A DNA stretch of 64,000 nt from assembly GCA_024614665.1 (NCBI GenBank), contig GCA_024614665.1_4861.1; one strand, given 5' to 3'. Shown here in pieces: positions 4,018 to 63,971 of this stretch. Position 1 is the first letter of the stretch; each line of letters begins with the position of its first letter. The notes beneath the pieces were generated by a model that was not told the origin of the DNA, ran no database searches, and saw nothing but the letters and a program-made list of their open reading frames with translations. This stretch comes from a phage. The position numbers and the translations under genes were made by a program.

Positions 4018-4034
4018 GTGTGATTAATCGTGTG
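4018..4034 (-). promoter_or_regulatory. variant of the TTAATCGACTAT upstream element
   Basis: Minus-strand CACACGATTAATCACAC overlapping the stop of the upstream gene, then TTAAGGAATATTAAG ATG. Confidence 0.3.
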
Positions 4035-4695
4035 AAAGACGAGCTTCGAGGTCGTCGATAATGGTATCTGTGAAATAGCTAATATCTAGCTGCTCCACGA
4101 AATCCCTGCGTTCCAGAATGCGCTCTGCGAAGAGCGTACCGTACCAACTAGGGACATTACTAACGCCGTTGCGTCCGAACTTCTGCTGGACATGACCAAC
4201 GGCATGGAATTTTGCATCACCTTTGCTTTTACCCTGTTCACGGGCAAACAGATAAGAACGGTGCATGTAATTGCTCACGTCATCTACAGACGGTATACCA
4301 CGGTCAGCTGCGGCAACTATCTCAGAGACAATCCCGTTGTAGTTCCCTTTGTGAGAACTGCGGTGTTCTAAGACTGCATGGGCAATCGTCAAACATTCAT
4401 CATCGGTAAGTTTATACTTACGTTTGAGCACTGGCTTGTTATCCAGTATCCAGCTATACCCTTTGATGTGGTGCGACGCACGGTCTTCTTTGGTAGAGAA
4501 GATGTCGTGAGCTGCCACCGCAATCAGTATCAGCTTCAGGTGTTCGGTTTGCCCAAGCATATACGCGATACGAATCGCATTTGATTTAACTGAGTTGATG
4601 TGATCCATGCGATGCGCACTATCGGTATAACGATAGAAGTCGCGGAATTGACGAACCAGTTTTTCCCAAAGTTTGTTGAGTTCAGTGCCCTGCAT
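4024..4695 (-). CDS. HD-domain phosphohydrolase
   Basis: 223 aa; H...HD metal-binding signature (HRMDH ... AVAAHDIF) typical of the HD superfamily. Confidence 0.55.
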   Translation of the reverse strand: MQGTELNKLWEKLVRQFRDFYRYTDSAHRMDHINSVKSNAIRIAYMLGQTEHLKLILIAVAAHDIFSTKEDRASHHIKGYSWILDNKPVLKRKYKLTDDECLTIAHAVLEHRSSHKGNYNGIVSEIVAAADRGIPSVDDVSNYMHRSYLFAREQGKSKGDAKFHAVGHVQQKFGRNGVSNVPSWYGTLFAERILERRDFVEQLDISYFTDTIIDDLEARLSHD

Positions 4696-4710
4696 GTAAA
4701 TATTCCTTAC

Positions 4711-4730
4711 GGTAATGGTCGATTAACTAC
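4711..4730 (-). promoter_or_regulatory. TTAATCGACCATTACC element upstream of SD
   Basis: Minus-strand TAG TAGTTAATCGACCATTACC GTAAGGAATATTTAC ATG; fills the 34-nt gap between two genes. Confidence 0.45.
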
Positions 4731-5173: not shown

Positions 5174-5572
5174 TCAGATCAGCTGCTCGGCGCGCAAACG
5201 TCTCAAAGTGTTCGTTGCTGTAATAAGAACATCTTGCAGCTCTTGTATTGCTTCGCCATCAAAGTACGCTTTAAGATGCAGGTCGCTGGTGATGAGTCCG
5301 CCGTATTTGTAAGGCAGGTCTGTAATATCACAGACGATGGGATTTTCTGCTCGCCACTTTTCATCAGCAATGAGAATAAGAAACTTCCAGGCGTTTTGAT
5401 TGTCGAGCGCTTCGCCGGTTTCTGGCTTGTAGAGTTCTTTTAAACGTTTATCGCGCTCAGCGATAAGGTATTCGTCATCAGTCAACAGACGAATTAAATC
5501 GGCTTCGTTGCTCTCGGCTTTAGCACAAAGCATCATGGCAACAAAGGGGTCTTGGCGTAGTTGGTTAGTCAT
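5174..5572 (-). CDS. hypothetical protein
   Basis: 132-aa ORF; AAGGAG SD 8 nt upstream of ATG; preceded by promoter-like elements. Confidence 0.55.
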   Translation of the reverse strand: MTNQLRQDPFVAMMLCAKAESNEADLIRLLTDDEYLIAERDKRLKELYKPETGEALDNQNAWKFLILIADEKWRAENPIVCDITDLPYKYGGLITSDLHLKAYFDGEAIQELQDVLITATNTLRRLRAEQLI

Positions 5573-5590
5573 TGTAAATACTCCTTCTGG

Positions 5591-5606
5591 GTAATAGTCG
5601 ATTAAA
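5591..5606 (-). promoter_or_regulatory. TTTAATCGACTATTACC element upstream of SD
   Basis: Minus-strand TTTAATCGACTATTACC CAGAAGGAG TATTTACA ATG. Confidence 0.45.
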
Positions 5607-5631
5607 GCGTTAACGTGTAACGCTCACCTAA

Positions 5632-5647
5632 GTAATATATATCTCAG
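5632..5647 (-). promoter_or_regulatory. AT-rich promoter-like element (TATATTAC type)
   Basis: Minus-strand CTGAGATATATATTACTTAGGTGAG, repeated near-identically at 63690-63706; contains TATATTAC, which I recall as the early-promoter consensus of phiKZ-like phages. Confidence 0.5.
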
Positions 5648-23723: not shown

Positions 23724-25985
23724 GTGGCAACACCCCCTAATCATCTTACAGAGAGGTTTTACGTGGAAGCAAGACAACTAAAAGATTCAGGATGGGTAAC
23801 CGGCCTGTTTGGCGGTACAACCGCACAACGCGATGAGCGTTTCCTGGGTTTGCGTCGTTACTCTAACGCGATGCTCTCGTTTGAAGATACCACGATGGGT
23901 GGTTCGCAAGCGTTAAATGCGCCGCCGCAGTTTACGATGTTTGCTGATCCGAGTTCAACAGGTGCCTTTGCACAACCTGATGCAGGTCGTGGTTCGTACT
24001 CAAAGTACGTTAAAGGTCAAGACCAACGTGGTTCCTATCGTCTAGGGACTTTCTATTACGAAGCTATTAACCAAAACAGTTTTTATCTTCATTGTCGTTT
24101 CGGTAAACCTCGATATATCGGGGTCGCTGCATTCTTCGCGAATATGTACGATTCCAACCTAGCGTATCTGGCACGCACAGGTGATTACCCAGGTATGTTA
24201 CGTGCGATGGGGACGTATGTTGCCGCCGCAGCAATATGGGCCGCAGTAGGTACGGTTGCCTTTGCGGTTATTCTGATTACGCCACGTATGTTGAAGATGG
24301 TGCTGAACAAGCAGACTTCTCGCTACTACTACGTGAAACCGACAATGCACTTGTATCTGCGCGCTGTGCAGAATATGGTCAACACCCAGTTAGTTTATCG
24401 TCGATTAGTACCAACGGGTGTGTTAGGGACTTTCCAGCTTGCTAATGCTGTAGATGGGTCTGAGAAAGGCGGTACTGCTAATAAGTACAACGGCGACCGT
24501 AAAGAGTGGTACTCCATGCTGCCAGAAATCTGGACAGCTGATGGTGAGTTCGATATCTATCGAATGATTAACCGCTACCAAACTTTGGCCAACTACCAGG
24601 CGAAAACCATCGATAAGATTCGTAAAGAGTCGAGTAACGAAGAGGACATGGCTCGCCGTTTGCGAAACTTCTATCTGGAAGCGACGTACTCAACAACCCA
24701 TTTGGAAAAAGCTGCGCAGTACGAGGTTTCTTTACGTAACCTTGAATACGTAGCCAAAGCTGGTAAAGGGTACGATGCTGGTTTTGAAAACGTCGACAAC
24801 AAAGAAGACGAACTGGTAGCAGGGATGAATGGAAGCATTCAGGATGCTCAGTCACAAGGAGGTAAAGCTGAAAACTTCGAAAACGAAGGTGACGTGCAAC
24901 GTAAAGAGCTTGCCGATCGCATGGCGCAGGTTGAAAAGAACCAGGCTCAGGTTGCTAAAAGTCAGACTGAAGCAAACTCGATGGATGAGAACAATCTCGA
25001 CATTGGGAAAATTGAAAACTGGATGGACCAAGGTCAGAAAGAATCTGTCGGTAGCGTCTTTAAAGACTATATCGATATTTTAGATGGCGCTATGGATGGC
25101 CTAACTTCGAACATCGCTTCGGAGATACGTAACGGTTCGCAATGGATTACTTGGCGTGTTGATGGGCGCGATACCGTAGGGCGTTCGTTCTCCAACACCA
25201 CCAAAGAACCTGAAATCTCTGGCACGGTTAACTCCGCCACGCAGAAAGCACGTTCTTTGGAAGTAAACCTCTCCGGTGGTAAGACTGGTTTCGACGCAGT
25301 CGATGGTCTCATTACTGGGCTGAAGTCCGCCTTTACAGGCGCACTCGATTTCTTACATTTATCAGGGATTATGTCACTGTACAACTCGTCGGTGATTGAC
25401 TTCCCGGAAGTGTGGGACTCCTCAGACACCTCAGGTGACGATATCTCGCTAAGTATTCCCCTTCGCTGTTGGTCGGGTAATGACTTAGATGTGTTTCAGG
25501 ATCTGATTGTCCCGTTGTCGTTCTGGTTAGCGGCAGTTTGTCCGTTAGCAACCGGTAAACAATCGTTTACACACCCGTTCTATCTGGAGTGCTATTCTCG
25601 CGGTCGTTATTCCATGCGTAATGCCATGGTAACTAACCTGAGTCTCCAGTTCGGTACAGGTGGTTTAGGTTGGCGTGCTGACGGTCTGCCGTTGTCGTGT
25701 GATATACAGGTAACTATTCGTGACCTGTCGCGTGTTATGTACATGCCGATTGTAACTGATATTGGTGTGTTTGATGATGATAACAAGTTCAGTGAATTTA
25801 TGTCTGTGTTGGGCGCTGCCACACTTTACGAGCGTACCAACGGCATCGCGCAGGCTAAAATCAATGCGTCTATCTGGGCGCAGAACTGGGCAAGTGCTTG
25901 GTCGCAGGGTAGCATCGTCAACGCCGCCTTAGATATCATACCAGCCCGACAAATCGCGAACATTTTCCTACCACAAGCGCGTTAA
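23724..25985 (+). CDS. virion structural protein (hypothetical)
   Basis: Long ORF directly after the giant gene; more likely start is GTG 23763 with GAGAGG SD. Contains one hydrophobic helix. Confidence 0.5.
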   Translation: MATPPNHLTERFYVEARQLKDSGWVTGLFGGTTAQRDERFLGLRRYSNAMLSFEDTTMGGSQALNAPPQFTMFADPSSTGAFAQPDAGRGSYSKYVKGQDQRGSYRLGTFYYEAINQNSFYLHCRFGKPRYIGVAAFFANMYDSNLAYLARTGDYPGMLRAMGTYVAAAAIWAAVGTVAFAVILITPRMLKMVLNKQTSRYYYVKPTMHLYLRAVQNMVNTQLVYRRLVPTGVLGTFQLANAVDGSEKGGTANKYNGDRKEWYSMLPEIWTADGEFDIYRMINRYQTLANYQAKTIDKIRKESSNEEDMARRLRNFYLEATYSTTHLEKAAQYEVSLRNLEYVAKAGKGYDAGFENVDNKEDELVAGMNGSIQDAQSQGGKAENFENEGDVQRKELADRMAQVEKNQAQVAKSQTEANSMDENNLDIGKIENWMDQGQKESVGSVFKDYIDILDGAMDGLTSNIASEIRNGSQWITWRVDGRDTVGRSFSNTTKEPEISGTVNSATQKARSLEVNLSGGKTGFDAVDGLITGLKSAFTGALDFLHLSGIMSLYNSSVIDFPEVWDSSDTSGDDISLSIPLRCWSGNDLDVFQDLIVPLSFWLAAVCPLATGKQSFTHPFYLECYSRGRYSMRNAMVTNLSLQFGTGGLGWRADGLPLSCDIQVTIRDLSRVMYMPIVTDIGVFDDDNKFSEFMSVLGAATLYERTNGIAQAKINASIWAQNWASAWSQGSIVNAALDIIPARQIANIFLPQAR

Positions 25986-32597: not shown

Positions 32598-32645
32598 TAT
32601 AGTTCTCCTTGAGGTCTTTTACATACGTACAGCCGTGGCCGTAAA

Positions 32646-33008
32646 TTATCGAAGAATAAGAATTTGGCTACTGTCGTGCACATTGTACGTATTCATCCTG
32701 GGCTTGCTAGGCGGATTGAATCCCATCAATAATTCGCTCAATACACGACCAGGCTGCCCACTGAAGATAACCAGGTGTGTGGTGTCTTCGCCGTCTCCAA
32801 GTCGGGAGAAAGCCACGCGTGGCGACGCAGCTTGCGTGTAGAGTTGCAATAGTTGAAACTTACCTTCTGCGAAGGGAGCAAGTTTCTCTTTCCACTCGAC
32901 CATAGATGATTCGTCGAGTTCTAACGTGCGTACACGTCTCCCGTCGCTATCCGCAACCCCACAAACAAACACGATTCCGTGACGATTAAAGAAAAAACCG
33001 ATTTGCAT
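32646..33008 (-). CDS. hypothetical protein
   Basis: 120-aa ORF with AAGGAG SD; preceded by a terminator. Confidence 0.5.
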   Translation of the reverse strand: MQIGFFFNRHGIVFVCGVADSDGRRVRTLELDESSMVEWKEKLAPFAEGKFQLLQLYTQAASPRVAFSRLGDGEDTTHLVIFSGQPGRVLSELLMGFNPPSKPRMNTYNVHDSSQILILR

Positions 33009-41283: not shown

Positions 41284-41358
41284 CAGGTGTTACCTTTTTG
41301 CAGTTCTCGTACATAAGGTTTGGGTGATACGTAAAAGACTTACTATGTAGCCCAATCC

Positions 41359-41381: not shown

Positions 41382-42137
41382 ATGAATGTTAATCCACTTG
41401 CAGCGTTGTCGGGCTTTGTTGCCAAAGCATCCACGATTCTGCCTAAAGCCTTTAGCGGCTCTCAACAGGAACTCGCGCTGACCACCTATGACGACATGTC
41501 TGATGTGTCCAAGTGGATGCAGCAAGAGAAGTTTTTAAACTTTACCGGAATGCTTGTACCCGTACCTCCGGGCTTCAACACGTATGTGATGGACCACATA
41601 GAACGGTTGGAATCTGTATGGGCTGTGCTCCAGAAGATTCAGGAAGGGGTTTTAACACCCATCGATAAACGTTTCGGTGCGATGACCCATGACCTGGGCA
41701 TGTTAACTCTGCCGATTGGGTTTAAGTTCAAAGACCTGAACTACCCGCTGAAAAATATCAATCCAAAAGATCTGGTTGAGAAACTGGCGAAGTCGTATAC
41801 CAACAACGTCATTGACCAGCGTCCGATTGAAAAGACCTACCACAGCGCAGGCGAGATCGATGTTGCATTTAATCGTGCCAAAGCGCTGAACCTGGAAGTG
41901 ACTAAGAAACTTCAGAAAAGTATTGACCGTACAGTTGAAAGCATCAATGTCTCTGTGGATATTATCTCTAATTCACAAGTCCATCCTAATGTGGCGGCAG
42001 AGTTAGTGAAAATGGCTGACATGGGTGCTGACTGGGTTGAGCTGTTCGGACTTTTTATGAAACAGATTAACGAACTGACAGAATGTCTGAACGTAACTGG
42101 TGATCGCCTCAAGACCCTGAAAGCAAACAAAAAATAA
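41382..42137 (+). CDS. hypothetical protein
   Basis: 251-aa ORF followed by a strong terminator. Confidence 0.55.
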   Translation: MNVNPLAALSGFVAKASTILPKAFSGSQQELALTTYDDMSDVSKWMQQEKFLNFTGMLVPVPPGFNTYVMDHIERLESVWAVLQKIQEGVLTPIDKRFGAMTHDLGMLTLPIGFKFKDLNYPLKNINPKDLVEKLAKSYTNNVIDQRPIEKTYHSAGEIDVAFNRAKALNLEVTKKLQKSIDRTVESINVSVDIISNSQVHPNVAAELVKMADMGADWVELFGLFMKQINELTECLNVTGDRLKTLKANKK

Positions 42138-42146
42138 AACGTGATA

Positions 42147-42188
42147 CCTCCCACCTACCGTAACTGGTAGGTGGGAGGGTTTTATTTT
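42147..42188. terminator. bidirectional intrinsic terminator
   Basis: Long stem CCTCCCACCTACC / GGTAGGTGGGAGG then GTTTTATTTT; A-rich run on the other side. Confidence 0.7.
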
Positions 42189-43110
42189 AAACGGTAAGGA
42201 AACCACGAACGAGCGTTGGTGGAATCCATCTTACGACTTTCTGGCGTACGCCATCGCGCGGACCTTTCCAGAAAGTGTGCCAATGTGCACGCCGCATATG
42301 TGCTTTACGACCACCTTCTCTTAATCCGCTCGTGGTTGTTCCGTACTGATTGAGATAGCGTTCCTGTTCGTTTATGGTTGAAATAACAATTGGCTTAGAT
42401 CGTGGCTGGACATGATAATCCGGCATCGTTTTTCTTTTCTTCCTTTTTGGGTATACCGTAGGTTCGGGATAACGCGGGATGAGAGAACAGGTAAAGAGCA
42501 TTGCAGTGACTAGCCGATGGGGTGCCTCTGTCCATTCATCGAACACCCCACTAAGTTTAACAAAGCCGTTCCCCACATCTACGATTTCTGCGGCATCAAC
42601 CTGTACACAATCGACCGCGTTACGAAAAATACTTAGAATCAAACAGTCTTTTCCTTGAATCCACCGCCTGGAGATATAATAAACCAATTCCAGTTTTTCA
42701 CCAGTCTGCTGTATGATCTCTAGGGGGAATTCTACGGTCCATCCTGGGATTTTATCAAACCAGTCACGCGGCAATTCATCGAGAAGATCGGAGCCTATCA
42801 TCTGTTCAAACACAAAAGAGTCACCGATAAGTAACACACCACCATAACGGTAACCGTGTGCGATAGTGGCGTAAAGATTTTGAACTTCAAGGTTTTTCGG
42901 AGTAGACGATAAGAAATATTCCGGTGGAATGAACCGCTGACCTATGCACCCCTCGTGCTCAGACGCATATTTCTCAACCAAGTTGATGCCCCTGGAACGT
43001 TCATTTGCTTTACTCAACATGACAAGGAAATCACCATCGGTTTTCACTCTATCAGCATCAATACCCAGCAATTTTAATGCTACTTTATCACTTTCACTAA
43101 TGTTAAACAT
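42187..43110 (-). CDS. hypothetical protein with basic C-terminal region
   Basis: 307-aa ORF. Confidence 0.5.
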   Translation of the reverse strand: MFNISESDKVALKLLGIDADRVKTDGDFLVMLSKANERSRGINLVEKYASEHEGCIGQRFIPPEYFLSSTPKNLEVQNLYATIAHGYRYGGVLLIGDSFVFEQMIGSDLLDELPRDWFDKIPGWTVEFPLEIIQQTGEKLELVYYISRRWIQGKDCLILSIFRNAVDCVQVDAAEIVDVGNGFVKLSGVFDEWTEAPHRLVTAMLFTCSLIPRYPEPTVYPKRKKRKTMPDYHVQPRSKPIVISTINEQERYLNQYGTTTSGLREGGRKAHMRRAHWHTFWKGPRDGVRQKVVRWIPPTLVRGFLTV

Positions 43111-43126
43111 TTTAATACACCTTACG

Positions 43127-43144
43127 TAAATAGTCGATTAAAAA
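43127..43144 (-). promoter_or_regulatory. TTTTTAATCGACTATTTAC element upstream of SD
   Basis: Minus-strand order: terminator, TTTTTAATCGACTATTTAC, GTAAGGTG SD, ATG. Confidence 0.45.
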
Positions 43145-43175
43145 ATAAAACTGCGGACACCCCGAAGAGTGTCCG
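43141..43175 (-). terminator. intrinsic terminator
   Basis: Hairpin CGGACAC TCTTCGGG GTGTCCG followed on the minus strand by CAGTTTTATTTTT. Confidence 0.6.
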
Positions 43176-57988: not shown

Positions 57989-60488
57989 ATTTGATTATTA
58001 CCCCTTCGTTATAAACCGGTGGAAGCGTTACACCTTCTGGCTCGACGACACAGTAGGTGGCTTCGTTAAGTTTAGAATGAACTTCCGCTTCATGCGAAAC
58101 GACCAGTAATTGAGAAAACTCTCCCGACAACGCCAACGATTTAATGAAGTTAACTAATCGGTTTTTGTGTTCTTCATCCATGCCTTCAGATGGTTCATCC
58201 AATAACAAAGGATAGTTTTGTAAACCAAGCGCTTTATACGCCGTTAAACGAAACATCATGTTAAAGATAATACGCTGTGCTTTTGAACCTTTCTTCACAT
58301 CCGGTACCAGTTCTACATGGTCTTTTAATCGCACAGGGAACGTGTAGTCCAGATCCCCGTCGGTTAGATCGCACGGAATAACCTGCATCGGATATGCCCA
58401 CACCATTTCGATATACCGATTCATTAAATCCATGATGCGGGTAATCGCAGCGTAGAAGTAACGTCTCAGTAAACCTTTTTCAGGAGAAACCGCATTAATA
58501 ATCAGTCTGGCATGGTGGTGTTCTTTGAGCAACTCAGCTTGCTCTTTTTCCAGTTCCGCTAAACGTGCAATAGCCCCTTCCATTTGACGAAACCGTTCAC
58601 GAGCTGAAGTATACGCATCGAGCTTCGCTTCGCGGCGGTTTAACAACTCACGAACTACGACGTTGTTAACGGAGATGTTCATTTCCGATACCAGATGTTC
58701 GTAGCCCTTTTGGAAACGTTCGATTGCTTCTTTGGTTTGTTGCAGTTGGGTGGTTTCGCGTTCCAGCTCATTGGCTTGTCTGCGGTATTCTATCAGTCGA
58801 CGGTTAGCCCCGTCTAGTTGTGAACGGATATGTTCAATTTTCTGGCTCAGAGCACCATCAACATTACCTACTGCGGCAACAGCCTCTTGCCATTCCCGTT
58901 CCGCTGTTGCAAGCTTCGCTGATTGACGCAGATACATCATGGCCGAATCTAACTCTTCGGTAAAGGCACGTGCAATGGCACCATATCGATCCCGCGCCGT
59001 GGTGAAGATATCCAGCTCCTGTAGTTTACGGAAAAACAAACCGACAACGGGATGATTGGAATACGACATGACAATTTCGCGAATCGTACGTAGGCTACGG
59101 ACGTCCTCTTCAATCTCTTTGCGGTCACGCAAAAGACTATCCATTTCGTCTTTCAGCTGTTTTTTCCAACCTTCATTATCGTTGATGGCCTTTTCAATTT
59201 CAGGTAACGACTTACGAATCCCAGGACGGAAACGGTGGTTACACTGTGGACAATCAACTTCTGCAGTTTCTAAGAAGTGTTGACGGTCGTGGTATAAACC
59301 GTGTAGCACATTCTCACAACGTTGCAACTTTTCAGATAGACCCGCAGAGGTTAAATCCATACCCTGTAAACGCTTCTCTAACGCTCCTAGGCGCTCTGTT
59401 GTCTTTAACTGGTCCAGATGCATGGACAACGGTAAATTCCAGTTACAGGCGTCGTTTAACGCGTTCTGAATGCTATCCACGTCGATGCGGGTACCTTCAA
59501 ACAGAGCCGGGAACATCCAGTTCTGTTGGAACGTTGCCAGTTCCTGTTTTAAGCTGTCGATTGTTTGTTTTAGACCGGTATGGTTACGCATCAGATACGC
59601 TTGACGCGACTCCTCATCCAGTAGCTGTGACAACTCTTTATTGTACATGTTGCATTCAGTTTCAGCGGAGGCAGCTTGCTCACGCCAGGCAACCACACGA
59701 CTTTGAAACTCGTTAATCAGTTCGTCAGAAGGCAGAACGCCATAACGTTCCATAATGAGTTTTACAGCCGGTTGCAACGAAGCAATGCGTTTCCGGATAC
59801 TGTCAACCGAAACAGCGTTATCTAAACCGGGCCTTGCTTCAATTGTGCGGTTTAATTCTTGAAGCTCAGCATCGAGTTCTTTCAAACGAACTTCTAAACG
59901 TGCACGATCTTCTTCATCGTCAACGACGCGCATTTTTGCTTCGCCGATTTTTCGTCCGGTGTGTTCGATGGCCCCGCTTAAACTGGAAGCGAGTTTACGC
60001 AAACGTCGATAGCAGCCAACAACGTACGTCAGATCAGATTCTGACATTAACGTAAACCATTTACGACGAACTTCGGTAGTGGCGTCAGTTAATAAGGTCT
60101 CACCATTAATTAACTCTTTGATTTCTTTGGTGATTCCGGTTAATTGCTCCACCATGGAGTTGTAAACTTTGGCGTTTACCGAGTCCACAATGGGGACGCC
60201 TTTGGTGATATTGAAAATACTACAAGACAAAGAAGACCCACGTCGCAGGACTTCAAACTTAAGACGGTCGTCCCCGACTAACGCGTAGTTAGTGTAAGAA
60301 CCACCTTCACGGAATTCAGATTTTGCTGGAGCTAAGGGGAGAAAAACAGATAGGAGGCTTGTTTTACCGCAACCATTCCCACCAAGGATAATGGTAACGG
60401 TTGATTTAAGGGTGAAATCAAACGTTTCGATTTCATGTAACCCCATGCCGGTAAATCCTTTCAAAATGATACGTTCGACCTTGAGCAT
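57978..60488 (-). CDS. Rad50/SbcC-like SMC-family ATPase
   Basis: 836 aa; N-terminal Walker A GGNGCGKTSLL, long central coiled-coil-like region with CPQC zinc-hook-like motif, C-terminal Walker B LLLDEPSEGMD and H-loop-like VVSHE. Confidence 0.6.
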   Translation of the reverse strand: MLKVERIILKGFTGMGLHEIETFDFTLKSTVTIILGGNGCGKTSLLSVFLPLAPAKSEFREGGSYTNYALVGDDRLKFEVLRRGSSLSCSIFNITKGVPIVDSVNAKVYNSMVEQLTGITKEIKELINGETLLTDATTEVRRKWFTLMSESDLTYVVGCYRRLRKLASSLSGAIEHTGRKIGEAKMRVVDDEEDRARLEVRLKELDAELQELNRTIEARPGLDNAVSVDSIRKRIASLQPAVKLIMERYGVLPSDELINEFQSRVVAWREQAASAETECNMYNKELSQLLDEESRQAYLMRNHTGLKQTIDSLKQELATFQQNWMFPALFEGTRIDVDSIQNALNDACNWNLPLSMHLDQLKTTERLGALEKRLQGMDLTSAGLSEKLQRCENVLHGLYHDRQHFLETAEVDCPQCNHRFRPGIRKSLPEIEKAINDNEGWKKQLKDEMDSLLRDRKEIEEDVRSLRTIREIVMSYSNHPVVGLFFRKLQELDIFTTARDRYGAIARAFTEELDSAMMYLRQSAKLATAEREWQEAVAAVGNVDGALSQKIEHIRSQLDGANRRLIEYRRQANELERETTQLQQTKEAIERFQKGYEHLVSEMNISVNNVVVRELLNRREAKLDAYTSARERFRQMEGAIARLAELEKEQAELLKEHHHARLIINAVSPEKGLLRRYFYAAITRIMDLMNRYIEMVWAYPMQVIPCDLTDGDLDYTFPVRLKDHVELVPDVKKGSKAQRIIFNMMFRLTAYKALGLQNYPLLLDEPSEGMDEEHKNRLVNFIKSLALSGEFSQLLVVSHEAEVHSKLNEATYCVVEPEGVTLPPVYNEGVIIKYAS

Positions 60489-60508
60489 GTTTGCCTTCTA
60501 ATGAGAAA

Positions 60509-60521
60509 GTATTAGTCGTTC
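60509..60521 (-). promoter_or_regulatory. variant of the TTAATCGACTAT upstream element
   Basis: Minus-strand order: terminator, GAACGACTAATAC, GAAGG SD, ATG of the SbcC-like gene. Confidence 0.35.
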
Positions 60522-60540
60522 ATATCCAAAAGGTCATGCG

Positions 60541-60573
60541 TAAAAAAGAAGAAATGGAACCCCGAAGGGTTCC
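60541..60573 (-). terminator. intrinsic terminator
   Basis: Hairpin GGAACCC TTCG GGGTTCC followed on the minus strand by ATTTCTTCTTTTTTAC. Confidence 0.6.
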
Positions 60574-60584
60574 AGAGAGGAGAG

Positions 60585-61211
60585 TTATTGCGGAATAAAC
60601 TTACGGTGTCCGAGTGATTCCCAAAAACTATCGGTGCGCTCTTTGGTTAATTCATACCACGCACGCCCGGCATCAGAATCGACAACCTTTAACGTTTCAG
60701 TAAGCAGGAATTTGAACAGTTCAGCGCTACGACCGGGTGCTACACCGTCGAGATATATCGGAATTAAATAACCGGTTTTGATTTCTTCGTACGGTTGCGA
60801 TTGGTGCTGACCAACAACCCAGGCGTCAGCCGCGCTACCGACCAAAGTGGTGTTTACAGTTAACTCATCAGAAATCCAGTTAACGGTATCAGCCATTATT
60901 GAATCGCCATTGACGTAGAAGAAAACTAAACGTTTAGGTTGCTCCACCGAACCGGCCAAATCTAATGCAGTAGTTCCGGTGAAGATCGTATTATTGGGAT
61001 TACGTTCTGCAATAGGTAGAGCAAACCACGCTTCGAGCTGTTCCCAGCTACGCGGCAGTGCTTCTTTAAACCACTTCACCAATCGCGGGTATTCCAGAAA
61101 CCCTTCTACCTCTTCTTCCATCAGATTGATACGCAGTTTGGTATCCTGACGATTCGCTTTCTGACATGTCACCATGTCATCGATGAAACGAATCAGGGTA
61201 ATTTCGTTCAT
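60585..61211 (-). CDS. hypothetical protein
   Basis: 208-aa ORF; no Mre11/SbcD phosphoesterase motifs. Confidence 0.5.
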   Translation of the reverse strand: MNEITLIRFIDDMVTCQKANRQDTKLRINLMEEEVEGFLEYPRLVKWFKEALPRSWEQLEAWFALPIAERNPNNTIFTGTTALDLAGSVEQPKRLVFFYVNGDSIMADTVNWISDELTVNTTLVGSAADAWVVGQHQSQPYEEIKTGYLIPIYLDGVAPGRSAELFKFLLTETLKVVDSDAGRAWYELTKERTDSFWESLGHRKFIPQ

Positions 61212-61265
61212 GTTTAATCCTTCTTCAACAAAAAAAGAAGGTAGCCCGTAGGCTACCTCTCGTAT

Positions 61266-61766
61266 TTACAGCCCCATATGCATAAGGGAAATGATAGGGA
61301 CTTTTCGGCCACGTATCATTGCATACGGTTCGTACATTTGTGCGTTAGTTTCGAATAACTCACAGGCCGGAATACGATCGCCGGTAGAGAGTTGTAAGAC
61401 TTCGATTTGGTCGCCCCAGAAGTTATTCACTAATACGTGGTCGACAGTGTTGTCTTCACGACCTTCAGGGGTTTTGCAATAAGTGGCGGCATCGTACCAA
61501 CCTTTGCGGTATACTTCATAACCCGCGTGAAGCATCCGGTAGTACGGACGCAGTTGTGGGGCATTCAACGCAGCATCTAGCCACTCGCTGTGAATGCTGT
61601 TAATCAACACGGTCGCTTCTTCTGGCCACTCGCTGCGGTTTAGGGTTAACTCGCCTAACAGCTTTAACTTCCAGCCAGTGGAAAGAATAGCGCGGGTACG
61701 TTCTGGATTGACGTTCATCTGAGTAAAGAAAGTAGAACGAGTATCGTCAAGAATGTTCATGTTCAT
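61266..61766 (-). CDS. hypothetical protein
   Basis: Start placed at ATG 61766 (MNMNILDD) with TAAGGA SD; the longer ORF-track start would run through the regulatory element and terminator. Confidence 0.5.
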   Translation of the reverse strand: MNMNILDDTRSTFFTQMNVNPERTRAILSTGWKLKLLGELTLNRSEWPEEATVLINSIHSEWLDAALNAPQLRPYYRMLHAGYEVYRKGWYDAATYCKTPEGREDNTVDHVLVNNFWGDQIEVLQLSTGDRIPACELFETNAQMYEPYAMIRGRKVPIISLMHMGL

Positions 61767-61782
61767 TTGCTTAGTCCTTACG

Positions 61783-61802
61783 AGTAATAGTCGATTAAAA
61801 AG
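61783..61802 (-). promoter_or_regulatory. TTTTTAATCGACTATTACTC element upstream of SD
   Basis: Minus-strand order: terminator T-run, TTTTTAATCGACTATTACTC, GTAAGGA SD, ATG. Confidence 0.45.
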
Positions 61803-61804
61803 GA

Positions 61805-61866
61805 CCCTGCGGCTATGTGTTGGGGATATCACCGCAGGGCCAAAGTGAGATGGGTCGTCATCTCAC
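61805..61866 (-). terminator. tandem hairpins, putative terminator
   Basis: Hairpin GTGAGATG/CATCTCAC (61845-61866) and hairpin CCCTGCGG/CCGCAGGG with a large loop (61805-61839) followed on the minus strand by TCCTTTTTAAT. Confidence 0.4.
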
Positions 61867-61883
61867 GTTATAACATCTGTCTG
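61867..61883 (-). promoter_or_regulatory. AT-rich promoter-like element (weaker variant)
   Basis: Minus-strand CAGACAGATGTTATAAC just after the stop of gene 61896-62279; resembles the element at 37303-37323. Confidence 0.3.
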
Positions 61884-61895
61884 AAAACTTTTCGG

Positions 61896-62279
61896 TTACT
61901 GGTCGAGCGCTACTGAACCACGCACCACTCCTTGCTGTTCAATAACCAGGAGGCGTTGTTTGGTTTTCGTATTGTAAGCGAGCGACGCGCGAAGCGTCGG
62001 GTCGCACGTTATTGTCTCTACTGGCACAATCTCTTGTGCCTTTGAGTTCAACAAAAAGTAGTAACCTGCCGGACAAGTTTCCTCGCCCTTTGCGTGGACC
62101 AGGATGTACTCGTCGTGCCGGCTGACTTCTTCACATCTACCATCATCCCCAGTACAGACTTCGAACGAAGGCGGGTTGTACTGATACGGTGTGCCTGGTA
62201 GTAAATCTTCTACGCTAGTTGTAGCTGAAGCAGAAGCGGTAAAGAACACCGCCACGATAATACCCATAAATCCACGCAT
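61896..62279 (-). CDS. secreted protein (signal peptide)
   Basis: 127 aa; N-terminal MRGFMGIIVAVFFTASASA signal-like segment; AAGGAA SD. Confidence 0.5.
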   Translation of the reverse strand: MRGFMGIIVAVFFTASASATTSVEDLLPGTPYQYNPPSFEVCTGDDGRCEEVSRHDEYILVHAKGEETCPAGYYFLLNSKAQEIVPVETITCDPTLRASLAYNTKTKQRLLVIEQQGVVRGSVALDQ

Positions 62280-62292
62280 GTTGTTTCCTTAC

Positions 62293-62703
62293 TTAAAAGT
62301 CGAGTTTATTGATGCCTACGTTTTTCTTAATCGTAGGGTCATACATGATAACCGTCAGGGCATTATCACCTGGGTCGCGAGTAAACTCAGCAACGGCTTC
62401 ACCACTGCAGGCCTGGTTATCATTATAGTTCATGGTTTCGGCTTGCCCGGTTGCCATGTTAATAACCCCGTATTCCGGGTCGCCACATGCGACGCCGCCC
62501 ATCGTTTTCACTAACAGGTAACGGTTGTTATCGGACATCGCAACGATCTGGCAGCTACCGCCTTGTACGTCAGAGTTCTGGCACCAGAACTGGCCGCCGT
62601 ATTCGTGATCGTTAACAACTTTTGGTAACTCGATACTTCCAGCACGAGCGAAGAAGCTAATGGCCAGAGTAGCAAGTAAAACTGGTAATAAAAAATGTTT
62701 CAT
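62293..62703 (-). CDS. secreted protein (signal peptide)
   Basis: 136 aa; N-terminal MKHFLLPVLLATLAISFFARA signal; GAGGTG SD. Confidence 0.5.
   Translation of the reverse strand: MKHFLLPVLLATLAISFFARAGSIELPKVVNDHEYGGQFWCQNSDVQGGSCQIVAMSDNNRYLLVKTMGGVACGDPEYGVINMATGQAETMNYNDNQACSGEAVAEFTRDPGDNALTVIMYDPTIKKNVGINKLDF
62296..62308 (-). promoter_or_regulatory. variant of the TTAATCGACTAT upstream element
   Basis: Minus-strand AAACTCGACTTTT AAGTAAGGAAACAAC ATG. Confidence 0.3.
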
Positions 62704-62725
62704 AATAGCACCTCAATTTTTTGAG

Positions 62726-63217
62726 TTATTCTGAATAGTCGATTGTTTTGATAGTTTCCATACCGTAGTACATAGCGATGGAGGCCAGAGTTTTGGTATC
62801 CGGTCGCTGTACAAAACCGGCCCTGAAATCTTTGCTGCAAATTTTCTCCACTGATAGTTCATCACGATTAGGGATAAGCCATAACGCGTCACCGTTGTGA
62901 CGGTCGACTGCACCCCACCAACCACCTGGGCAATCTTTATCGCCCGGACGGTGTACGATAGCGACACGTCCGTTGAAGGATATGTCAACTACACGACACT
63001 GTTTCTTAAGCAGCTTACGCGCATTGCACCAGAACGGCTTATCATTAAGATTGATGGTGCGGGTATATGCTGGAATGCTGCCGTTAATACTGCCCTGGAA
63101 CCCGCTGAATTCGTCAGCGCGTGCCTTAGAAATCCGTAGCCCAACAACAAGTGCCATCAACAGCACAGTAAAAAGCACCACTTTGGCCAAGTGGCGATTA
63201 ACGTTATTGCATTTCAT
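62726..63217 (-). CDS. secreted protein (signal peptide)
   Basis: Start placed at ATG 63217 (MKCNNVNRHLAKVVLFTVLLMALVVGLRISKARA) with GGAG SD. Confidence 0.5.
   Translation of the reverse strand: MKCNNVNRHLAKVVLFTVLLMALVVGLRISKARADEFSGFQGSINGSIPAYTRTINLNDKPFWCNARKLLKKQCRVVDISFNGRVAIVHRPGDKDCPGGWWGAVDRHNGDALWLIPNRDELSVEKICSKDFRAGFVQRPDTKTLASIAMYYGMETIKTIDYSE
62733..62745 (-). promoter_or_regulatory. AATCGACTATTC element
   Basis: Minus-strand CAATCGACTATTCAGAATAA overlapping the last codons of the upstream gene, about 35 nt before ATG 62703. Confidence 0.4.
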
Positions 63218-63605
63218 TTTTAATATCTCCACGATTAAGGGTGATGCGACCGACGAGCACATCGTTGTGATAAAAACTCACAGCAACCAGATCTGGCAAT
63301 TCCAACGGCGATACACTGACCGAGGTGACTTTTGGTTGATTGCACGATATGTCGATTAATCGCTGATACATTTTCAATTTCTTATCAGCGATAACCAGCC
63401 CTGTGCAGTTCTTACCGTCCGTCAGTCTGTAGATTTGTAACTGTTCGACCTCACGCATCAGTTCCGGTTTTTCATTCGGTGCAATGGCATAATCCGAATC
63501 AGCTGATGTGTATTCAGTCACGTCTGGCTTATCGAAAGCATAAGTTGCTGCAATACCACATGCGGCCAGAACTACTACTGCTTGTAAGAACTTCTTGATA
63601 GTCAT
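63204..63605 (-). CDS. lipoprotein
   Basis: 133 aa; signal peptide with lipobox VLAACG. Confidence 0.5.
   Translation of the reverse strand: MTIKKFLQAVVVLAACGIAATYAFDKPDVTEYTSADSDYAIAPNEKPELMREVEQLQIYRLTDGKNCTGLVIADKKLKMYQRLIDISCNQPKVTSVSVSPLELPDLVAVSFYHNDVLVGRITLNRGDIKNEMQ
63227..63240 (-). promoter_or_regulatory. variant of the TTAATCGACTAT upstream element
   Basis: Minus-strand CCTTAATCGTGGAGATATTAAAA ATG. Confidence 0.3.
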
Positions 63606-63614
63606 GTTTTGCTC

Positions 63615-63627
63615 TATAGTCGATTGG
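63615..63627 (-). promoter_or_regulatory. AATCGACTATAG element
   Basis: Minus-strand order: terminator, AACCAATCGACTATAGAGCAAAAC, ATG. Confidence 0.4.
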
Positions 63628-63630
63628 TTT

Positions 63631-63659
63631 AAAAAAGAATAGGCTACCCGAGGGTAGCC
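63631..63659 (-). terminator. intrinsic terminator
   Basis: Hairpin GGCTACCC TC GGGTAGCC followed on the minus strand by TATTCTTTTTT. Confidence 0.6.
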
Positions 63660-63689
63660 AGTTGAGTTAATCTCTTAACTCTCACCTAG

Positions 63690-63706
63690 GTAATATATAT
63701 CTGAGA
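63690..63706 (-). promoter_or_regulatory. AT-rich promoter-like element (TATATTAC type)
   Basis: Minus-strand CTCAGATATATATTACCTAGGTGAG, near-identical to the element at 5632-5647. Confidence 0.5.
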
Positions 63707-63710
63707 TATT

Positions 63711-63971
63711 TTACAATGTGAAGGTTGTGTTAAGAATACGAAAACCCAATGCTCGCTTAGCGATTTGCATATTTGCAGGCGTGAAGTCCACCAGTTTGAT
63801 TTGAACGATCGATAAATCGTAAAGCTTGTGAAGCACTTCGATTTTGTGCCGCCAATCTGTTTTTTGGTGCAGCTCTATCGTCGTTGGTATCTCGCCTAGT
63901 CTCGGCAACTGTGCCCCAAGTAAACGATGATGGACTTTACCGTTTATAGTTGGGGTACCTTCCGTAACCAT
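63711..63971 (-). CDS. hypothetical protein
   Basis: 86-aa ORF close to the window edge; upstream region not fully visible. Confidence 0.4.
   Translation of the reverse strand: MVTEGTPTINGKVHHRLLGAQLPRLGEIPTTIELHQKTDWRHKIEVLHKLYDLSIVQIKLVDFTPANMQIAKRALGFRILNTTFTL

Follow-up and report, generated by a model that had tools for sequence, protein, structure and literature searches.

The window analysed here is the whole of a 64,000 nt stretch of phage DNA (NCBI GenBank assembly GCA_024614665.1, contig GCA_024614665.1_4861.1). Its segment 58000-64000 is 97% identical over the whole length to the Salmonella phages SPN3US and SEGD1 (Seoulvirus), and judged by sequence the window is derived from an SPN3US-like, phiKZ-related jumbo phage; the minus strand of SPN3US corresponds to the plus strand of the window. 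The subject of the analysis is a leader box of 12-13 bases, AATCGACYATTA, which is found just 5' of the ribosome-binding site (RBS) in about 14 early genes of the SPN3US-like phage. A motif at these sites on the minus strand had been proposed from the letters of the window (the original prediction), and three functions had been offered for it: a middle or late promoter, an RNA processing site or a translational operator. The copies in the window are given below together with the Shine-Dalgarno (SD) sequences and genes that follow them. Scores are from a position weight matrix (PWM) and from an independent PWM, the latter trained solely on SPN3US box copies outside the window region, with dinucleotide shuffles as background.

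5590-5606, minus strand: box TTTAATCGACTATTACC, with the core ATCGACTAT at 5594-5602; PWM 24.0, independent PWM 19.8.
5581-5587, minus strand: SD GAAGGAG, with the ATG at 5572, of the gene behind the 5590 box, which encodes a 132-aa hypothetical protein.
4711-4727, minus strand: stand-alone box GTTAATCGACCATTACC, adjoining the upstream stop codon; PWM 20.5, independent PWM 16.6.
4703-4710, minus strand: SD, with the ATG at 4695, of a gene for a 223-aa HD-domain protein (by SPN3US annotation), the third gene of the operon starting at 5645.
43126-43142, minus strand: box TTTAATCGACTATTTAC, forming the 5' edge of a gene cassette that is missing from SPN3US; PWM 23.0, independent PWM 19.5.
43118-43125, minus strand: SD, with the ATG at 43110, of the gene behind the 43126 box (307 aa).
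61783-61799, minus strand: box TTTAATCGACTATTACT, the copy named in the original prediction; PWM 23.6, independent PWM 20.3.
61774-61781, minus strand: SD GTAAGGAC, with the ATG at 61766, of the gene behind the 61783 box (166 aa).
62731-62747, minus strand: box AACAATCGACTATTCAG, within the final codons of the upstream open reading frame (ORF; stop 62726-62728), followed by an ATG at 62703; PWM 18.4, independent PWM 15.6.
63612-63628, minus strand: box ACCAATCGACTATAGAG, followed by a weak SD (GACTGT in SPN3US) and an ATG at 63605; PWM 16.1, independent PWM 12.9.
62286-62307, minus strand: plausible degenerate copy AAACTCGACTTTTAAGTAAGGA with the core CGACYWWT and an ATG at 62279, under the strict-PWM threshold.
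60509-60521, minus strand: plausible degenerate copy GAACGACTAATAC with the core CGACYWWT and an ATG at 60488, beginning 1 nt past the TATG of a TTTTACG-N14-TATG promoter-like motif (60521-60545).

Within the window, the 15-mer TTAATCGACTATTAC occurs on the minus strand exactly at 5591-5605 and 61784-61798, with one mismatch at 4712-4726 and with two at 43127-43141. When up to three mismatches are allowed there are five matches against 1.88 expected, a number that 5 of 100 shuffles also reach, and the enrichment of the 15-mer alone is marginal. Strand bias and the independent PWM show the motif itself to be real. The 9-mer core ATCGACTAT has a minus-to-plus ratio of 6:0 in the window and of 8:1 in SPN3US, where the strand ratio of ATCGACYAT is 12:1. 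At a score of at least 14 the independent PWM finds six matches on the minus strand of the window and none on the plus strand, the expectation for both strands being 0.97 and the maximum across 200 dinucleotide shuffles being four; at a score of at least 16 there are four matches against 0.19 expected. Tests at the scale of genomes were made on the complete genomes of SPN3US and of Erwinia phage Machina, which belongs to a separate genus. Unbiased 8-mer enrichment in 264 upstream regions of SPN3US independently yields ATCGACTA and CGACTATT; it also picks up two families that resemble promoters, the T-runs of terminators and the SD block CTTAAGGAGTATT. The core that is shared across genera, CGACYWWT, has 50 copies in the SPN3US genome and falls at -45 to -7 in 10 genes against 1.1 expected. 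The box is borne by about 14 SPN3US genes, and every copy upstream of a gene start shares the orientation of that gene.

The copies are fewer than had been claimed. At least ten genes had been credited with the motif, and the number is 6-8, made up of the six solid copies and the two plausible degenerate ones. Five sites had been described as weaker variants; all of them score below 10 by the strict PWM, those at 62296-62308 and 60509-60521 being plausible through CGACYWWT and those at 4018, 36725 and 63227 being unsupported. One other box-like sequence, ACTAATCGACGATAAAC, is located on the minus strand at 24393-24409 (PWM 15-16). It lies antisense within the plus-strand gene 23724-25985 with no SD or ATG following, and is probably a chance match.

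From core to ATG the solid copies at 4711, 5590, 43126, 61783, 62731 and 63612 measure 19, 21, 19, 20, 31 and 10 nt, respectively, and in 10 of 12 copies the core is found 18-21 nt before the ATG. The spacing between promoter and box ranges from 9 to 65 nt. With a near-constant distance to the ATG and a variable distance to the promoter, the box is positioned by the SD and start codon and not by the promoter. Its reported placement after intrinsic terminators or at the end of the preceding gene is borne out: the copies at 43126, 61783 and 63612 come after hairpins with T-runs, and those at 4711 and 62731 touch or lie within the end of the upstream gene, as listed above. Conservation also extends through the SD, as had been stated; however, the SD block CTTAAGGAGTATT, present in 17 genes, is the general strong-RBS consensus of the phage and no peculiarity of the motif.

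Two phage-encoded multisubunit RNA polymerases (RNAPs) transcribe such phages, one carried in the virion (vRNAP) and one non-virion (nvRNAP) (PMC7598289). Early promoters, used by the vRNAP, are AT-rich and centred near -10, while the nvRNAP uses middle and late promoters that are reportedly not predictable bioinformatically (PMC7598289). The published early-promoter family of phiKZ, 201phi2-1, OBP and N1M2 has the consensus TATATTAC, with the form TTTCARRYAKATATTATYWAAGTG in OBP and N1M2 (PMC7058600). Many box copies in SPN3US are found about 30 nt downstream of a longer conserved block, TCAGATATATATTACYTAGGTGAG, which is by its sequence a clear member of this family. SPN3US early promoters fall into two subclasses, class A (TCAGATATATATTACYTAGGTGAG; seven, including a variant at 4439) and class B (GATAGATATTATCTnnGnGA; about 11). 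All class-A promoters of SPN3US are followed by a short hairpin, the box, the SD and the ATG. The box is present at 6 of 6 strict class-A genes (7 of 7 with the 4439 variant) against 8 of 258 other genes (Fisher p=6.8e-9), and it is combined with class B in one case only, at 23822, upstream of the gene for a PHIKZ068-like nvRNAP subunit. Class-A leaders are long and structured, whereas class B runs nearly straight into the SD; RNAP-subunit genes and the PHIKZ068-like gene are among those driven from class-B promoters.

The early motif of phiKZ and 201phi2-1 has its centre about 10 bp before mapped transcription start sites (TSSs), and in 201phi2-1 it ends ...GTG at the TSS region (PMC11512511, PMC8244752). 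Applying this geometry places the predicted +1 at the G of the terminal GAG in TAGGTGAG. The canonical unit consists of TCAGATATATATTACYTAGGTGAG, a hairpin from the predicted +1, the unpaired AATCGACYATTA, 2-5 nt, the SD TAAGGAG, 7-9 nt and the ATG. Wherever an upstream promoter can be predicted (seven class-A cases, one class-B and two TTTACG-N14-TATG), the box lies past the predicted start site, inside the leader. For the class-B case (23822) and the two TTTACG-N14-TATG cases (SPN3US 57144, window 60521) it follows the predicted +1 at a distance of 1-10 nt. Stand-alone copies precede internal genes, and those at SPN3US 57143, 166641, 167589 and 224194 (window 62731, 61783 and 4711) are located in class-A operons. 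The cassette with the 43126 copy lies downstream of a class-B promoter, an assignment based on the mapped coordinates of the class-B site SPN3US 184056. The promoters, hairpins and terminators that accompany the box in the window are as follows.

5623-5645, minus strand: class-A promoter GAGATATATATTACTTAGGTGAG, fitting the early consensus TTTCARRYAKATATTATYWAAGTG (PMC7058600), with the G of the terminal GAG as predicted start.
5606-5625, minus strand: 5'-terminal leader hairpin GAGCGTTA-CACGT-TAACGCT (minimum free energy fold), between promoter and box.
63681-63703, minus strand: class-A promoter, with a 5' hairpin at 63664-63683 and a full intrinsic terminator at 63631-63659, all upstream of the 63612 box.
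43140-43174, minus strand: terminator-type hairpin GGACACTC-TTCG-GGGTGTCC plus GCAGTTTTATTTTTT, directly upstream of the 43126 box; fold -15.6 kcal/mol.
61797-61841, minus strand: hairpin GGCCCTGCGG...CCGCAGGGTCC plus TTTTT, adjoining the 61783 box upstream; fold -21.0 kcal/mol.

Two further observations concern the neighbourhood of the 63681-63703 promoter. On the minus strand of 63631-63703 the terminator, GGCTACCCTCGGGTAGCC plus TATTCTTTTTT, precedes any gene, from which either a transcript of about 50-60 nt or an attenuator is predicted; such a short transcript would be reminiscent of the small RNAs derived from 5' untranslated regions (5'UTRs) in 201phi2-1 (PMC11512511). On the plus strand, an octamer resembling the early box, TATTTTAC, is located at 63707-63714, a few bases from the promoter, and points in antisense into the gene next to it, at that gene's 3' end. 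Either chance or an early promoter, divergent or antisense, could account for it.

Class-A leaders were compared in a set of 41 distinct sequences drawn from SPN3US, Machina and IMG/VR. The hairpin starts exactly at the predicted +1 in 31 of them. The leader hairpins average -6.7 kcal/mol against -1.7 kcal/mol when shuffled, and 86% against 5% reach -5 kcal/mol or lower. They comprise 16 different stem sequences, in which changes are matched on both arms. Hairpin stability and these compensatory stem changes suggest that selection on the leader acts at the RNA level. In predicted leader folds the core of the box has a probability of being unpaired of 0.60-0.93. Base pairing within the mRNA, between the box and either the SD or the start region, was considered and set aside, given that the box is predicted to be unpaired in all leaders.

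By BLAST the promoter-hairpin-box cassette was found in 66 phage records, all of them jumbo phages of Salmonella, Escherichia, Proteus or Erwinia. The class-A promoter of Machina is identical, and behind five of its seven copies come a hairpin and then a related box abutting the SD (T/A-N-GACTWT-CGAGGA). In the same genome GACYWTCRAGGA has a ratio of 7:0 in favour of the coding strand, and one internal gene (67302) also bears the box. The related module in Erwinia jumbo phages reads GACYATCRAGGA. When IMG/VR was scanned with the class-A promoter core, 58 distinct sequences were obtained from downstream of it, and among these GACYWT stands beside the SD in 18 genuine jumbo-phage leaders. These leaders form two spacing classes, with 12-14 nt to the ATG (GACYATCRAGGA) or 19-22 nt (GACYATTAMnnTAAGGA). 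Between SPN3US and SPFM4, orthologous leaders differ by eight substitutions, all in TAGG or in the hairpin loop, and by none across the 36 nt from box to ATG. When Seoulvirus and Erskinevirus leaders are aligned, the columns that do not vary are those of the promoter core, CGAC.A.T, AAGGA and the ATG. Such patterns of substitution suggest that the box is under purifying selection.

In some IMG/VR relatives that share the class-A promoter and the 5' hairpin, the place of the box is taken by other conserved linkers, such as CACTTAACNAAACCATTTTAGGAG (four leaders) and TTTATCGAATACCTAATTAGGAG (four leaders), which suggests that leader boxes are lineage-specific. The phiKZ early leaders examined contain no hairpin-box module, and a transfer of phiKZ TSS maps was rejected on this ground. 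Outside SPN3US-like contigs, a search of IMG/VR with the pattern of box plus SD gave 47 scattered matches, about the estimated chance number, and these were not used. Matches to the box motif in the searched literature were unrelated PCR primers only. Rfam 15 returned no match at the gathering threshold across the whole window; the sole snoRNA match (E=0.32, in 60400-63800) is attributed to chance.

The box is best explained as a cis-acting, RNA-level element of the leader or translation initiation region (TIR) of early mRNAs in SPN3US-like and related Erwinia jumbo phages, and we put the chances of this reading at about even. From its sequence context the box most likely controls translation or mRNA fate, and it is probably not itself a promoter. 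Among the three functions originally offered, the promoter is disfavoured, and the RNA processing site and the translational operator both fall in the RNA-level class that is favoured here. About 20 bits of oriented, sequence-specific conservation, in an unpaired segment beside the SD and with a CGAC core, point to recognition by a specific trans-acting factor; the high information content and the CGAC core also make a passive AU-rich standby site less likely. Within this reading, a site that serves a dedicated factor as operator or cleavage target is slightly favoured over a passive enhancer. A trans-acting factor would then read the box on the mRNA, beside the SD. RegA and RegB of T4 offer the analogy: most likely the reader would be encoded by the phage, as an RNA-binding protein or an endoribonuclease, and would turn about 14 early genes on or off as one regulon. 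A factor-independent ribosome standby site or enhancer of the T7 gene 10 leader type would be a less likely alternative. If the box were cleaved, the protective 5' hairpin would be removed or the upstream cistron would be given a 3' hairpin, and cleavage could act as a simple timer for the decay of immediate-early messages.

Several specific partners of the box were considered and rejected. A phage RNase as the reader was not supported by annotation, where the 'ribonuclease' of the window is an RNase H-domain protein and its neighbour gene encodes a DEDD-type 3'-5' exonuclease. A translational enhancer that pairs with 16S rRNA was dismissed after RNAduplex comparison with E. coli rrsH, which gave results no better than shuffled boxes (fraction of shuffles at or below the observed value, 0.27-0.82). 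A phage-encoded antisense partner was likewise discarded, as the reverse strand has no strong PWM match in SPN3US (best 13.8, a palindromic overlap).

Against the RNA-level reading stand a number of observations. About 20 genuine jumbo-phage class-A leaders in IMG/VR, or roughly half, lack the box, some of them having other conserved linkers, which makes the box optional among the relatives. The SPN3US and Erwinia types have box-to-SD spacings that are about 5-7 nt apart, showing that an exact geometry to the SD is not universally required. The box has no complementarity to 16S rRNA, which leaves a passive pairing enhancer without support, and no candidate reader protein was identified. Three copies follow credible intrinsic terminators, one copy is the sole upstream sequence of a mobile gene cassette, and TATTAC at the end of the best copies recalls ATATTAC, the early -10 box; each of these would fit a promoter. 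As a DNA-level promoter, the box would represent a further class for a phage multisubunit RNAP. Its leaders would be very short, beginning at the SD or immediately ahead of it, and behind early promoters it would stand in tandem with them. We regard this explanation as improbable. It would account for the box at 63612, where a full terminator parts the early promoter from the gene and only the box remains between them, and for the moron-like look of an inserted cassette of gene and terminator with the box as its 5' edge. Tandem early and middle start sites are also documented for PHIKZ054 (PMC8244752). However, TATTAC is found in some copies only, with TATTAA, CATTAT, TATTCA or TATCAC in others, and the terminators need not signal a promoter: among 49 junctions of terminator and gene in SPN3US, 38 are free of any early, TTTAC-type or box motif from the T-run to the ATG, a stretch that often measures only 17-30 nt. 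Read-through is evidently the rule at such junctions, and an upstream terminator does not demand a promoter. The features of the known promoter classes are also absent. At the position of the extended -10 box of early vRNAP promoters (TATATTAC or ATATTAT, about 10 bp before the TSS) the AT-rich upstream half, ATATA, is replaced by TCGAC, and instead of a T-rich or TTTCAR tract upstream of about -19 there is variable hairpin or coding sequence. Early geometry would put +1 about 7 nt past the box, a point that falls within the SD for the SPN3US type and beyond the SD for the Erwinia type (GACTATCGAGGA). The T-3ATG+1 of late nvRNAP promoters (PMC7598289) has no counterpart, as the box reads CTATT, CCATT or CTATC with no TATG in or just after it, and the phiKZ nvRNAP strictly needs all four bases (PMC7598289). 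With the TAC(T) box of middle promoters, about 22-24 nt before the TSS (PMC7598289, PMC8244752), the TSS would hit the ATG in the SPN3US type or the interior of the ORF in the Erwinia type. A canonical SD at a canonical distance is kept in both types, and phiKZ 5'UTRs are mostly 31-40 nt long, with zero leaderless mRNAs (PMC11512511, PMC8244752). A host sigma70 promoter, with TCGACT or TTGACT as -35 and AT-rich spacers as -10, was rejected by inspection, the spacing of 15-19 nt being inconsistent and the TSS falling inside the ORF. Middle and late logic is better fitted by AAAATTTACG-N14-TATG, described below, which holds the tandem position at SPN3US 92577 and 109929. With the box downstream of predicted starts, promoter features wanting and another motif in the role, the middle or late promoter first suggested is disfavoured.

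Two other explanations would leave the box at the level of DNA. It might be an operator for a phage regulator, such as the helix-turn-helix (HTH) protein encoded at SPN3US 94310, a gene that itself bears the module, and serve as a roadblock that ends early transcription. By inspection AATCGACYATT has imperfect dyad symmetry (AAT.G.C.ATT), and its Erwinia counterpart T(T/C)GACTATC(A/G)A is dyad-like too; an HTH regulator gene is among the box-bearing early genes, and a position at +20 to +40 of early promoters suits a roadblock. Yet all gene-start copies are oriented with their gene, which is unexpected for a symmetric site, and the centre of symmetry shifts by 2 nt between the two forms, whose AT-rich arms make chance symmetry likely. 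The nearly fixed distance to SD and ATG, the varying distance to the promoter, and copies far from any promoter and within coding sequence (62731) also speak against an operator, which we hold to be highly unlikely. The other explanation is that the box has no function and is a relic of duplication or gene conversion among promoter-leader-SD cassettes, shuffled in the manner of the promoter-early stem-loop (PeSL) cassettes of T4-type phages, with likeness reflecting descent and any use being as recombination homology. The modules are indeed repeated beside small variable early ORFs, one of them bounds an indel with respect to SPN3US, other lineages have different conserved linkers at the position of the box (e.g. 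ACTTAACNAAACCATTTTAGGAG), and apparent remains of decayed promoters precede some stand-alone copies (57143, 224194). Wholesale conversion or recent duplication would predict something other than what is seen within one genome, where the hairpin has diverged to many sequences while the box is near-invariant. The core is also kept across genera at orthologous genes despite adjacent indels, and the junction of the cassette indel is a terminator T-run and not the box. A mere relic is, on this evidence, distinctly improbable.

A third motif of the SPN3US-like phages, the A/T-rich AAAATTTAC(G/A)-N14-TATG, is found 14-80 nt upstream of about a dozen genes. When the pattern is relaxed, it has 18 matches in the genome against 7.6 in shuffles. 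Its sites are as follows.

60521-60545, 41312-41336 and 32622-32646 of the window, minus strand: TTTAC(G/A)-N14-TATG.
1143, 23014, 64394, 92577, 109929, 196282, 238181 and 160356(-) of SPN3US: TTTAC(G/A)-N14-TATG.

At SPN3US 92577 and 109929 the motif follows an early-type promoter, in tandem like the start sites of PHIKZ054. At SPN3US 57144 and at 60521-60545 of the window the box lies within 1 nt of TATG, and hence inside the leader. The motif may be the nvRNAP promoter of SPN3US-like phages, with a sequence that matches both middle (-22 TAC box) and late (T-3ATG+1) logic.

The cassette at 42129-43142 on the minus strand comprises the 307-aa gene with its own box, SD and terminator, and is present in Salmonella phage SaP7 (99.4% identity) and missing from SPN3US. 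It is bounded by TTTTATTTTTT repeats, and the indel junction corresponds to duplicated terminator tails and not to the box or module. In Erwinia phage Asesino the orthologue gp235 (66% nt identity) is located between duplicated terminators and keeps a degenerate box, TTCGTCGACAATTG. No Pfam domain was found in the 307-aa protein, which belongs to phrog_6160, a family of unknown function. Elsewhere, repeated modules of promoter and stem-loop adjoin small early ORFs. The box-bearing genes are hypothetical with the exception of the HTH regulator (SPN3US 94310), the HD-domain protein of the SPN3US annotation and the PHIKZ068-like nvRNAP subunit, and a comparison of their functions revealed nothing to unify them beyond being early. 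The PHIKZ068-like gene has an ATG with a GGAG SD nine codons before its annotated start (SPN3US 23859-23886), and the annotated start codon is probably wrong. At Machina 160614 and 239235 the annotated TTG start sits in a TTGACT box with an SD-preceded ATG 27 nt downstream, and both of these starts are probably misannotated as well.

The box can be compared with several known systems. With respect to the phiKZ-family early promoters, it always stands downstream of the SPN3US version, TCAGATATATATTACYTAGGTGAG, and its best copies have the TATTAC hexamer in common with the promoter. It differs from them in being located 9-65 nt downstream and past the predicted +1, in occurring also where there is no promoter and in lacking the AT-rich and T-rich upstream parts. 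The middle and late promoters of phiKZ (AT-rich TAC box at about -22; T-3ATG+1) are likewise short motifs near gene starts in the same phage family; however, the box has no TATG and an incompatible geometry, and it is AAAATTTACG-N14-TATG of SPN3US that fits this class. The leader of T7 gene 10 (g10-L) consists of a phage-RNAP promoter, a 5' mRNA hairpin, a short single-stranded box, a strong SD and the ATG, and contains the 'epsilon' translational enhancer, a model that rests on 16S rRNA complementarity. The SPN3US leaders have the same architecture, including a box predicted to be single-stranded (P 0.60-0.93) behind a 5' hairpin (86% of leaders). The sequences, however, are unrelated, and the SPN3US box lacks 16S complementarity and marks about 14 genes and not one. 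Compared with AU-rich enhancers of the S1 type, the box has a much higher information content and a conserved CGAC.

Early mRNAs of T4 are tuned post-transcriptionally by RegB, which cleaves within GGAG (the SD itself), and by RegA, whose sites overlap the AUG. The box resembles these sites as a short TIR sequence common to a set of early mRNAs, here of about 14 genes mostly in early-promoter operons. The conserved sequence in SPN3US lies upstream of the SD, unlike the T4 sites, and no homologue of RegA or RegB was found, though no search aimed at one was made. The PeSL elements of T4-type phages are mobile cassettes of early promoter and stem-loop beside small variable early ORFs and are tied to gene gain and loss. 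In SPN3US, too, repeated modules of early promoter and stem-loop flank small variable early ORFs, but their order is promoter, hairpin, box and SD, with the hairpin at the 5' end of the mRNA, and the mapped indel joins at the terminator T-run.

Gene regulation in phiKZ-like phages has so far been described almost wholly in terms of the promoters of the two phage RNAPs, and we know of no post-transcriptional control of the first transcripts made after injection in these jumbo phages. The box is found between the 5' hairpin and the SD in essentially every canonical early leader of SPN3US and defines a small early regulon, which could be tested in the genetically tractable Salmonella system. By-products of the analysis are promoter models for SPN3US-like phages, with two early subclasses and a candidate nvRNAP motif, and the compact expression modules of promoter, hairpin, box and SD are possibly useful for engineering. 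If the box were merely passive context for a strong RBS the finding would be ordinary, while a dedicated reader would raise its interest considerably. A more specific proposal, tentative and in our estimate rather unlikely, is that the box is an RNA address label of the immediate-early regulon in nucleus-forming (chimalliviral) jumbo phages, where a dedicated factor would read AAUCGACYAUUA by the SD of vRNAP mRNAs. Such a label might serve selective translation, a shut-off timed by cleavage, or the handling of mRNAs after exit from the early-infection vesicle. If this were true, it would amount to a layer of post-transcriptional temporal control new to this phage family, in which boxes specific to each lineage would co-evolve with the factors that read them.

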